Assembly (NCBI GenBank): GCA_963828735.1
Contig: CAWHFW010000005.1
Location: 2,176,001-2,240,000 of the forward strand
DNA: 64,000 nucleotides
Reading direction: 5' to 3'
Origin: an uncultured Gemmatimonadales bacterium
GTDB lineage: Bacteria > Gemmatimonadota > Gemmatimonadetes > Gemmatimonadales > GWC2-71-9
In this document: positions 50,633-53,550 of the stretch, in pieces
How the letters are laid out: each line of letters starts with the position of its first letter
Position numbering within the stretch: position 1 is the first letter of the stretch
Position numbers and translations under genes: made by a program
The notes under the pieces: generated by a model
What the model was told of the DNA's origin: nothing
Seen by the model: only the letters and a program-made list of their open reading frames with translations
The model's database searches: none

Positions 50633-52354
50633 CTACGCCATCGCGACCCGCACGCGCGCGGGCCGGTCGGGATGTACCTGCCGGGCGAGCGCCGCGAACA
50701 TGGGTATGTCGAGGCTCTGCGCTCCGTCGCTCATCGCCTTCGATGGGTCCGGGTGCACCTCCACGATGAGGCCGCAGGCGCCGGCCGCGAGCGAGCCCAG
50801 GCTGAGCGGTGTCACGAGCGAGCGCACGCCGGCGGCGTGGCTCGGGTCCACGATCACGGGCAGGTGCGTCCGCTCGAGCACCATCGCGACCGCGTTCAAA
50901 TCCAGCGTGTGTCGCGTAGCGCGCTCGAAGGTCCGGATGCCCCGCTCGCAGAGCACCACGTTCGGGTTCCCCTCCGCGAGGATGTACTCGGCCGCCATCA
51001 GCCACTCCTCGATGGTGGCGCCCGCGCCTCGCTTGAGCAGGATCGGCTTGCCGCTCCGGCTCGCGGCGCGGAGCAGGGTGAAGTTCTGCATGTTGCGCGC
51101 GCCGATCTGGAGCATGTCGGCGAAGTGTCCCACCACCGCGACCTCCTCCCAGCTCAAGACCTCCGTCACTACTGGGAGGCCGGTCCGCTCGCGCGCGTCC
51201 GCCAGGTACCGCAGGCCTTTGACGCCGAGCCCCTGGAAGTCGTACGGGGAGGTGCGCGGCTTGTAGGCGCCGCCTCTCAGCATGTCGCCGCCCGCCTGCG
51301 CCACGGCGTCGGCGGTCTCGAGGATCATCGCCTCGCTCTCGACCGAGCACGGGCCGGCGATGAGCACACGCTCACCCCCGCCGAACGTGAGCGGCCCGAC
51401 CGGCACCCGCGTCCCCTCCGGGATGCGCCGGCGGTCCACCAGCGGAATGTCCGGCTTCCTGGTGTGGTGGGCCGGGGTCGGCGGTGGGGCCGACAGGCGC
51501 GACCCTTCGATCCAGGCCTCGTAGCTGCCGAGCACCACGACCCTCGCCGCGAGCGCCTCGACCTCCTCCAGCGCCTCCGCGACGCGCGGATCCGCGGTCG
51601 AGCCGTCGATGTCCACGTAGAAGCGGTACGTCCATGGTGCCGACCGCTCCGGCCGTGACTGCAGCGCCATGAGGTTGACCCCTCGAACGCCGAAGGCCTG
51701 GAGTGTGAGAGCGAGCATGCCCGGCTTGTGGTCGATCAGCACGATGAGCGAGGTCTTGAAGCGGGTGGTGCCCGCGCTTCCGGCCGGCAACCCTGCCGCA
51801 TCGGCCCGGGTGAAGGTGAGAAAGCGCGTCTGGTTGGTCGGATCGTCCTCGATCCGTTCGGCGAGCGGAACCAGACCATGGGCGTCCGCCGCGTGGCGGG
51901 CGGCGATGGCCGCGAGCGCTGGATTCCCCTCGCCCGCCACCAGCTCCGCGCTGCCCGCCGTGTCCCAGGCGCTCACCAGCTCGACGTTCGGCAGGTGCTC
52001 CGACAGCCAGATGCGGCACTGGCCAAGGGCGACGGGGTGCGACAGCACCCGCTTGATCCCGTCGAGGCGCGCGCCCGGCAGCGCCATGATCGTGTGGTGC
52101 ACCGGATACAGGATCTCGTGCGTCAGCCGGAGCGTGCCGTCCCCGAAGGCCTCCTCGAGCAGGTCGTACGTGGTCGTCACCGAGCCGATCAGCGAGTTCT
52201 CGATCGGGAGGCAGCCGGCCTCCGCCTCGCCCGCCCGTACCGCGGCTACCACGTCCTTGGCCTCCCGACAGGGAAGGGTCGTCAGGTCGGGCCAGCGCCG
52301 CCGAGCCGCCGCTTCGCTGAACGAGCCGTGAGTACCCTGAATCGCCACGCGCAT
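50633..52354 (-). CDS. Fusion of prephenate dehydratase (+ACT) and type I-beta DAHP synthase
   Basis: N-half: GSFSE, PIENS, SHPVALGQC, NQTRF, QSRP. C-half: IAGPCSVE, KPRTSPYDFQG, IGARNMQN, LLKRG, DPSH, EVHPDP. One continuous frame. Confidence 0.95.
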   Translation of the reverse strand: MRVAIQGTHGSFSEAAARRRWPDLTTLPCREAKDVVAAVRAGEAEAGCLPIENSLIGSVTTTYDLLEEAFGDGTLRLTHEILYPVHHTIMALPGARLDGIKRVLSHPVALGQCRIWLSEHLPNVELVSAWDTAGSAELVAGEGNPALAAIAARHAADAHGLVPLAERIEDDPTNQTRFLTFTRADAAGLPAGSAGTTRFKTSLIVLIDHKPGMLALTLQAFGVRGVNLMALQSRPERSAPWTYRFYVDIDGSTADPRVAEALEEVEALAARVVVLGSYEAWIEGSRLSAPPPTPAHHTRKPDIPLVDRRRIPEGTRVPVGPLTFGGGERVLIAGPCSVESEAMILETADAVAQAGGDMLRGGAYKPRTSPYDFQGLGVKGLRYLADARERTGLPVVTEVLSWEEVAVVGHFADMLQIGARNMQNFTLLRAASRSGKPILLKRGAGATIEEWLMAAEYILAEGNPNVVLCERGIRTFERATRHTLDLNAVAMVLERTHLPVIVDPSHAAGVRSLVTPLSLGSLAAGACGLIVEVHPDPSKAMSDGAQSLDIPMFAALARQVHPDRPARVRVAMA

Positions 52355-52370
52355 GGTCTGCTCCGAGGAT

Positions 52371-52407
52371 GAAAACGAAACGCCCCGCCGGATCGGTCCG
52401 GCGGGGC
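52371..52407 (-). terminator. Attenuator terminator hairpin upstream of the pheA-DAHPS fusion
   Basis: Minus strand GCCCCGCCGGA-ccga-TCCGGCGGGGC (11-bp stem) then GTTTCGTTTT, shortly before the RBS and ATG at 52354. Confidence 0.92.
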
Positions 52408-52434
52408 AGCGATGGGGGGTCCGGTCGGCGAGCG

Positions 52435-52524
52435 CTACACGACGCTACCGACACCGGACGGGCATCGAGCCGCGCCGGCGTTGGTAAAATAGAAGTAGAA
52501 CCACGCGCTATTGGACCGAATCAT
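52435..52524 (-). CDS. Aromatic amino-acid attenuator leader peptide (29 aa)
   Basis: MIRSNSAWFYFYFTNAGAARCPSGVGSVV*; six consecutive aromatic codons TGG TTC TAC TTC TAT TTT. Confidence 0.9.
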   Translation of the reverse strand: MIRSNSAWFYFYFTNAGAARCPSGVGSVV

Positions 52525-52530
52525 GGAGTG

Positions 52531-52560
52531 AACGTACCGGCGCATCCTCGGATTTGTCAA
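52531..52560 (-). promoter_or_regulatory. Sigma70 promoter giving a leaderless transcript of the leader peptide
   Basis: TTGACA (52560-52555)-18 nt-TACGTT (52536-52531)-6 nt-ATG; no Shine-Dalgarno. Confidence 0.8.
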
Positions 52561-52581
52561 GCGAGGTATCTTTTCCGGCTC

Positions 52582-53550
52582 GTGACGCGCCCACTCCCCG
52601 TCCTCACCGGACTCCTGATCCTGTCGTGCCTCCTGTCGCGGCCCGCCGGGGCCCAGGGGTTGCCGTCGTACGCGCCCATCAATCCCGTGGCGGATTCACG
52701 GACGACGCTCGGCTTCGAGCCCTACCGCGGGCCTCAACTCGACCGGTGGAGCCTCGGGCTGTCCCTCGACTACGCCAGCTCGATCGAGTACTTCACGGCC
52801 TCGCACGCGGACTACGTGCTCGACGCCGAGCTGATGCGGCTACGCCTGCGCGTGGCTAGGGACCTGAGCCCATCAGCCTTCGTCATGGCGGACGTCGCGG
52901 TTCAGGGCAGCTATGCCGGGTTCCTCGACGGGTTTCTCGACTGGTATCACAATCTCCTCGGCATCACGCTCGAGGCCCGCGAGCTCCGTCCGCAGAACGA
53001 GTTCCTCTACGAGATGGCGCTGCCGGACCGCGTGGTGCGCACGCGGGACCCGAGCGACATGTTCCTGGGCGACGTGCGTCTCTCGGCCGGCCTCCGGCGC
53101 GGGCCGCACTTCCAGGCAATCGCGACCGTCACGCTTCCGACCTCCACCGGGCCCACCGGTTATGGGCGTGGCGTGGTCGCCGGTGGTGTGATCGCGACGG
53201 TGCGGGCCCCGCTGGCGAAGCCGCTGGTCTACGAGGGAAGTCTGGGTCTGGGGTACACGCCCACCCACGGCGATCTCACGGCCTACCAGCACACCACCTT
53301 TGTCTCGTTGAGCTCGGGAATGCGCTGGCGGTTCTGGGGACGACAGTCGCTGTACGCGAATCTCTTCTACCACAGTCCGTACTATCACGACACGACGCTT
53401 CCGTCGCTCGATCGCCGGGACCTCTCGCTCGATTTCGGCTGGATCCTGGCGACGCGGAGCGGCCGCGAGTGGCGGATCGGCATGACCGAGGACCTGGAGC
53501 CGAGCGGCCCTGCGATAGATCTCGTGTTTCGGCTGGGGGTGGCCCACTGA
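52582..53550 (+). CDS. DUF3187-like outer-membrane beta-barrel protein
   Basis: Signal peptide; GFLDGFLDWYH, LPT..G, EDL; alternating beta strands. Confidence 0.75.
   Translation: MTRPLPVLTGLLILSCLLSRPAGAQGLPSYAPINPVADSRTTLGFEPYRGPQLDRWSLGLSLDYASSIEYFTASHADYVLDAELMRLRLRVARDLSPSAFVMADVAVQGSYAGFLDGFLDWYHNLLGITLEARELRPQNEFLYEMALPDRVVRTRDPSDMFLGDVRLSAGLRRGPHFQAIATVTLPTSTGPTGYGRGVVAGGVIATVRAPLAKPLVYEGSLGLGYTPTHGDLTAYQHTTFVSLSSGMRWRFWGRQSLYANLFYHSPYYHDTTLPSLDRRDLSLDFGWILATRSGREWRIGMTEDLEPSGPAIDLVFRLGVAH

Follow-up and report, generated by a model that had tools for sequence, protein, structure and literature searches.

A predicted leader-peptide attenuator with aromatic control codons ahead of a pheA-DAHP synthase fusion gene in Gemmatimonadales

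Is the short, aromatic-rich reading frame ahead of a pheA-DAHP synthase fusion gene in an uncultured Gemmatimonadales bacterium a regulator of that gene, and which amino acids would it sense? The locus lies in the window, by which is meant the whole 64,000-nucleotide stretch of DNA that was analysed (GenBank assembly GCA_963828735.1, contig CAWHFW010000005.1). A sequence-only reading had described a promoter, a leader ORF, a hairpin, a ribosome-binding site and the fusion gene in this order on the minus strand, and all of them are present as described. The features referred to below are as follows.

52555..52560, minus strand: -35 hexamer TTGACA of a putative sigma-70-type promoter, conserved in orthologs
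52531..52536, minus strand: -10 hexamer TACGTT, below the promoter-scan threshold; TAnnnT is kept in orthologs
52435..52524, minus strand: leader ORF of 29 codons without a Shine-Dalgarno sequence (ATG at 52524, TAG at 52437-52435)
52486..52503, minus strand: control codons Trp8-Phe9-Tyr10-Phe11-Tyr12-Phe13; the last Phe codon (TTT, then ACC) is the predicted switch boundary
52463..52478, minus strand: segment A2, 5' strand of the predicted antiterminator (energy, covariation)
52442..52459, minus strand: segment B, whose predicted partners are initially the control region and A2 (early hairpin) and afterwards C
52419..52435, minus strand: segment C, predicted to pair with B in an inner hairpin that has the leader stop codon at its apex and brings A2 beside D
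52397..52414, minus strand: segment D, 3' strand of the predicted antiterminator, containing the terminator 5' arm
52372..52407, minus strand: intrinsic terminator, an 11-bp GC hairpin and U tract (terminator scan, folding)
52361..52364, minus strand: Shine-Dalgarno sequence GGAG of the fusion gene
50633..52354, minus strand: PDT-ACT-type I-beta DAHP synthase fusion of 573 aa (Pfam PF00800, PF01842, PF00793)
52582..53550, plus strand: divergent DUF3187 gene with a putative GTG start and a possible -10 box of its own (TATCTT at 52567-52572)

The start of the fusion was matched by 56 loci, and the 51 distinct orthologs whose upstream DNA was long enough were kept. Dropped were L051 and L077 (distant proteins with a different gene order and no leader), L097 (upstream DNA of 57 nt only), L092 (a duplicate) and L085 (from an unpublished genome). 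Together with 3 and then 5 further fusions, 59 leaders were available in total. When the upstream regions were aligned, a check that the sequence-only reading had proposed, the TTGAC promoter, the ATG, an in-frame aromatic run and the terminator were found together in 51/51 orthologs, in leader ORFs of 23-29 codons, and the stems A2:D and B:C covary. The conserved leader-peptide element is real. A covariance model of the leader family, run on 151 Gemmatimonadota genomes, reached at least 40 bits at 23 places, all of them belonging to the window's family; the 22 places examined all precede the fusion, and none of the seven weaker matches examined does so.

The start of the leader was considered from its promoter. 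On the minus strand TTGACA is followed after 18 nt by TACGTT and after a further 6 nt by the leader ATG at 52524. A promoter scan of the window region gave 0 promoter-like sites, so the promoter call rests on conservation: TTGAC stands 35-38 nt 5' of the leader ATG in 51/51 orthologs and a TAnnnT -10 box is present in 47/51. The distance from the -10 box to the ATG is 5-9 nt and mostly 6 nt in the 51 orthologs, a geometry that fits leaderless mRNA, and an SD-like motif precedes only three of the 51 leader ATGs, whereas one is found at all 51 fusion ATGs. We infer that transcription starts at or beside the A of the leader ATG, and the leader is probably a leaderless mRNA. Metatranscriptome contigs (4 of 15 matching runs compared; word shares 0.05-0.21) span the promoter and so bear neither on the transcript ends nor on the level of expression; in strain contig X4 (record 28, metatranscriptome) all four changes in the ORF are synonymous and the promoter hexamers are unaltered. 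A 393-aa ORF from 52369 is an upstream extension of the DUF3187 gene across the leader and offers no explanation for it; the leader is retained in orthologs whose upstream sequence differs. Back to back with the leader promoter, in plus-strand positions 52567-52584, TATCTT lies 9 nt before the putative DUF3187 GTG and is retained in close relatives, and this gene may also be leaderless.

The ATG is in frame with the control codons in 51/51 leaders, across five length classes. The first leader codons differ 52, 46 and 50 times at the three codon positions, which amounts to no amino-acid constraint, and no purifying selection on the N-terminal peptide was found across orthologs (25 synonymous and 49 non-synonymous changes). 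The distal leader shows strong nucleotide conservation, and since in L012, L013 and L093 the distal peptide is frameshifted and the RNA motifs are intact, this part appears to be constrained as RNA. The use of AT-rich control codons, to which attention had been drawn, holds for TTT and not for TAT: the boundary codon is TTT in 51/54 leaders, in front of fusion genes in which 587 Phe codons are TTC and 81 are TTT, but in the window's clade 5 TAT stand against 35 TAC codons in the control windows of 32 leaders. Strong conservation of Phe-Thr and of a downstream Gly and Ala (Gly-x-Ala) in the leader peptide could point to nascent-peptide arrest, and translational control of the fusion, as an alternative to tRNA charging and termination, has a parallel in mycobacterial leaderless attenuators that act on translation (10.1101/834739, in the portion available). 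We consider either mechanism improbable. The conserved codons coincide with helix strands and have a near-fixed codon choice, the distal peptide tolerates the three frameshifts, and the U tract is conserved at 20 to 53 nt from the fusion ATG across orthologs, which speaks for termination and not for masking of the Shine-Dalgarno sequence.

The terminator hairpin (52407-52382) has 11 bp, or 12 with a U-G pair, and a folding energy of -26.5 kcal/mol. It is followed by the tail TTTCGTTTT at 52380-52372, and there is no other terminator-like site in 1.4 kb. At least six T in 9 nt occur at 50/51 orthologous terminators, for which the median hairpin energy is -24 kcal/mol, and the leader as a whole folds better than 200/200 shuffles (z -3.5). 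As antiterminator, the sequence-only reading had put forward 52459-52443 paired with 52411-52396 (B:D), with 52478-52463 paired with 52414-52397 (A2:D) as an alternative fold; the two change places here. A transcript ending before the terminator 3' arm folds best with B:C inside A2:D (-49.2 kcal/mol). When B:D is imposed the energy is -33.6 kcal/mol, a penalty of 15.6 kcal/mol, and the probability of B:D is 0.00 at all control codons. In the 51 sequences 85.8% of cells are paired for A2:D and 87.5% for B:C plus the terminator, compared with 68.0% for B:D; the covariation score of A2:D exceeds those of 500/500 shuffles, and those of B:C plus the terminator and of B:D are reached by 0/500 and 92/500, respectively, in shuffles that ignore kinship, with kin that are not independent and with most A2:D core pairs barely varying. 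In a register-free test of cognate against non-cognate duplexes, z was -5.2 for A2:D, -3.9 for B:C and -2.0 for B:D (121 of 5000). Although B:D thus does slightly better with cognate pairs, and 15 pairs are possible in the window's genome (duplex energy -26.2 kcal/mol), it is most unlikely to be the antiterminator: B has a nearer and earlier partner in C (52435-52419). In the models, a mutually exclusive antiterminator that a stalled ribosome leaves free is present, and it is A2:D. The control region and A2 are also predicted to pair with B in an early hairpin (median -26.5 kcal/mol), a possible pause site; covariation of this 1:2-type hairpin is not above shuffles.

The ribosome was modelled by masking the RNA to +13 of the P site, and the terminator arm was taken as sequestered at a probability above 0.6. 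Folding under these footprint constraints places the switch boundary at the last aromatic codon. With this codon in the A site the arm is sequestered in 50/51 leaders (the search pattern set D in the wrong place in L017, L020 and L095), one codon later in 48/51, two codons later in 9/51 and at the stop codon in 4/51; footprints of +11 and +15 move the edge by about one codon. Stall positions up to the last Phe codon free the antiterminator in the folding models, with full antitermination already from codon 8, and two codons later it is blocked. The full-length RNA with a stalled ribosome favours the terminator at equilibrium (-57.5 versus -53.4 kcal/mol), and read-through must therefore be kinetic, as is also described for classical attenuators (PMC1183508, in the part available). 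Early and late control codons cannot be told apart by their refolding barriers (medians 4.7-7.2 kcal/mol).

The fusion gene is very probably controlled by a ribosome-mediated transcription attenuator carried on a leaderless mRNA; folding, covariation and the architecture shared by 51/51 orthologs support the proposal that an antiterminator becomes free when the ribosome stalls at aromatic codons. Transcription would begin at the leader ATG. With charged aromatic tRNAs in good supply, the ribosome would pass Phe13, cover A2 and halt at the stop codon, which tops B:C, and D, left free, would pair with the 3' arm, with termination near 52372 according to the folding models. A stall at any of codons 8-13 would leave A2 free while B:C folds; A2 would then zip onto D before the terminator 3' arm is made, a step presumed to be kinetic, and RNA polymerase would read into the fusion gene. 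A different way to account for the strong nucleotide conservation of the distal leader and for the absence of amino-acid constraint on the first codons would be a ligand- or protein-binding RNA (riboswitch, T-box or TRAP-like) in which the ORF is incidental. This has very little probability in our view: no Rfam family comes near threshold, the scan giving three chance-level matches (14-21 bits; P15, sX13 and sR49) and none to Phe_leader, Trp_leader or T-box, the ATG, frame, aromatic run and stop position are conserved, and the switch boundary agrees with a ribosome footprint.

Which aromatic amino acids the attenuator would sense was judged from the codons inside the control window. In a quick tree the leaders fall into a Phe-only group and the clade holding the window (SH-aLRT 92; 96 for the inner 27 rows). 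In the other group 21 of the 22 leaders, ahead of the same fusion, carry Phe alone in the control window. In the 37 leaders of the window's clade Phe is present in 36, Tyr in 35 and Trp in 30 (a table of the Trp slot gives 31, as it counts the Trp of L093, which is outside the control window); outside this clade Trp is found in 0/22 and Tyr in 1/22. All three lie inside the antitermination window in 28/37 leaders of the clade (24/32, and 4/5 of the additional leaders) and in 0/22 of the other group. Phe, which is near-invariant, would be the core signal and is probably the ancestral one. The position of Tyr, before or after Trp depending on the subclade, suggests selection to keep one Tyr, and Tyr-tRNA is likely to be an added signal that is usefully sensed in the window's clade. 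For Trp the evidence is divided. With six amino-acid changes its slot varies less than the four codons before it (15-19), but the first base, with six changes against 8-12 at neighbouring first positions, varies nearly like its neighbours, and G-to-A changes give stops; selection on Trp is thus moderate. Trp was lost or altered about 6-7 times among the 37 leaders of the clade. The claim that all three aromatics are sensed accordingly stands for Phe, is well supported for Tyr and only moderately for Trp, and equal sensing is uncertain; that Trp-tRNA is usefully sensed falls a little short of an even chance.

The same attenuator may instead respond to Phe only, or to Phe and Tyr, with the Trp codon a tolerated passenger, a reading to which we give somewhat under half of the weight. 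The two transitions of TGG are stops, so that drift is possible only via CGG, and Trp is missing in 7/37 leaders of the clade, mostly by TGG to CGG. The other group has Phe-only leaders ahead of the same fusion, the PDT under control is specific for Phe, and Tyr is without effect at Corynebacterium glutamicum aroR in the available part of PMC11802643. Nor do Trp codons track Trp synthesis, since trpC, over cut-off in 52/58 genomes, is found in both leader groups. Prephenate dehydrogenase (56/58 genomes) and Phe hydroxylase (40/58) likewise occur in both groups and do not explain the split. Trp leaders near trp genes were seen neither in G000 (the window's genome), G201 and G092 nor in the Phe-only G086, G181, G007 and G015, and there is thus no contrast to support replacement of a trp attenuator. 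Against a Phe-only sensor stand the low number of changes in the Trp slot, the uneven distribution of Trp and Tyr between the groups, the shifting position of Tyr and the full antitermination predicted from codon 8. That a single homologous leaderless attenuator was reprogrammed during evolution, a Phe-only sensor having gained Tyr and Trp codons in one clade to become a true three-input OR gate on the bifunctional PDT-DAHP synthase, in which an unchanging UUU-ACC codon pair defines the edge of the footprint, is possible but on the doubtful side. The order from Phe-only to mixed leaders depends on the root, which was placed at the midpoint on a long branch. In L018, from a record labelled Acidobacteriota, the leader has Tyr-Trp-Tyr without Phe, and a convergent prephenate dehydrogenase gene adjoins the fusion; gene transfer or a mislabelled bin may lie behind this record.

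The fusion is over cut-off for NCBIfam PRK11898 and TIGR01361, and no co-oriented ORF was found downstream of it at this locus. Full-length relatives occur in Gemmatimonadales and Gemmatimonadaceae-labelled MAGs and in the one Acidobacteriota-labelled record. The fusion is without the usual ferredoxin-like regulatory domain of DAHP synthase, and its ACT domain may regulate both fused enzymes; no solved structure spans both halves, and a literature search brought up no description of a PDT-DAH7PS fusion. A second DAHP synthase with a ferredoxin-like domain is encoded in the window's genome (C2:380391-381431), with no leader seen before it, and a copy at 50% identity or more is present in 51/54 fusion-bearing genomes. 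To call the leader one sensor for pathway entry, as had been done, is therefore an overstatement; because the second enzyme exists, the attenuator would govern Phe synthesis and an extra pathway input and not the sole entry. It would tune the DAHP synthase of the fusion, as an additional and inducible one, together with Phe synthesis, with Phe-tRNA as the main signal and, in the window's clade, Tyr-tRNA as a probable and Trp-tRNA as a possible addition. Chorismate mutase was of the AroH type in 5/5 cases and of the AroQ type in 0/5, and was unlinked to the fusion.

The same promoter-ATG design recurs elsewhere in the lineage. The TTGAC-TAnnnT-ATG geometry is found at 22 sites in the window's genome, most of them before long ORFs, and the design occurs with Cys runs in 12/20 cysH loci and with unrelated aromatic leaders in 3/17 non-fusion pheA loci. 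Leader codons match the downstream pathway (aromatic, Cys or Trp), which provides an internal control for the attenuator reading. Individual loci were also noted. At C5:1754299 of G000, minus strand (L200, L205), a leaderless-type leader containing three consecutive Cys codons, and a terminator, precede a PAPS reductase gene. The trp clusters of L185 (G098), L186 (G070) and L192 (G218) each have ahead of them a terminator and a leaderless-type leader in which Trp codons occur three times; in G098 and G070 the trp cluster starts with its own DAHP synthase, and the fusion leader of G098 has a single control Phe. The standalone pheA loci L126, L127 and L128 have aromatic leaders unrelated in sequence to the fusion family, and that of L128 (Phe, Tyr, Trp) suggests independent origins of aromatic leaders. 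At C5:1407408 of G000, plus strand (L201), a leaderless-type, Asn-rich ORF of 19 codons, followed by a T-rich tail, precedes a Gcw_chp (PF09694) outer-membrane-type gene and is possibly a nitrogen-sensing leader. Short leaderless-type ORFs with terminators lie at C5:285123 and C5:1961445 of G000, plus strand (L202 and L203), ahead of genes that we take from their N-termini to be glutamate synthase-like and isopropylmalate/citramalate synthase-like, respectively.

Multivalent attenuators, such as those of thr and ilvGMEDA, are known, and the aroR attenuator of C. glutamicum is said to have been termed leaderless by Neshat et al. in 2014. As far as the accessible parts of PMC11802643 and PMC4046766 go, aroR has a Phe-Tyr-Phe leader before the DAHP synthase gene aroF and responds to Phe, not Tyr, with aroF transcription rising on Phe limitation. 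The present leader resembles it in placing mixed aromatic codons before a DAHP synthase, a likeness by description without sequence comparison, but belongs to a different phylum, has a PDT-ACT-DAHPS fusion as target and has six control codons including Trp. With pheL-pheA and trpL-trpEDCBA of Escherichia coli (PMC11802643, PMC1183508, in the sections available) it shares control codons, an exclusive antiterminator and an intrinsic terminator, and with pheL-pheA a prephenate dehydratase target; unlike them it has no Shine-Dalgarno sequence before the leader, no Rfam match, mixed codons and an antiterminator formed by a long helix around an inner hairpin whose apex holds the stop codon. An amino-acid-sensing leader peptide without a Shine-Dalgarno sequence is also known, from the excerpts available, for the mycobacterial poly-Cys ORFs (10.1101/834739), which sense Cys and act on translation, in contrast to the intrinsic terminator and aromatic codons here, and for C. 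glutamicum ilvBNC, whose leader has no ribosome-binding site (cited in PMC4046766). A Shewanella aroF leader is listed as a Tyr-tRNA attenuator in the accessible portion of PMC2659441, and those of PMC13236596 and PMC3937554 hold nothing bearing on the fusion leader. The novelty suggested by the sequence-only reading was thus too broad, since an aromatic leader before a DAHP synthase (aroR) and leaderless attenuators (poly-Cys, ilvBNC) are already published, judging from these partial texts. No description of a three-aromatic leader, or of attenuation or leaderless leaders in Gemmatimonadota, was found in the literature; attenuator surveys in subscription journals, which were not searchable, might list the family.

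The mechanism is textbook attenuation, and what is new is this leader family in Gemmatimonadota. Classical attenuation is thereby extended to an abundant, mostly uncultured soil phylum, and an RNA family absent from Rfam is defined, with attenuators whose mRNAs appear to be leaderless and whose promoter is sigma-70-like. Should Trp sensing prove true, the family would be a clear example of a switch that went from one input to three. If the reprogramming is true, the 59 natural leaders would form a ready-made series on the addition of control codons, and the lineage would run several amino-acid pathways (aromatic, Trp and Cys) by leaderless attenuators.
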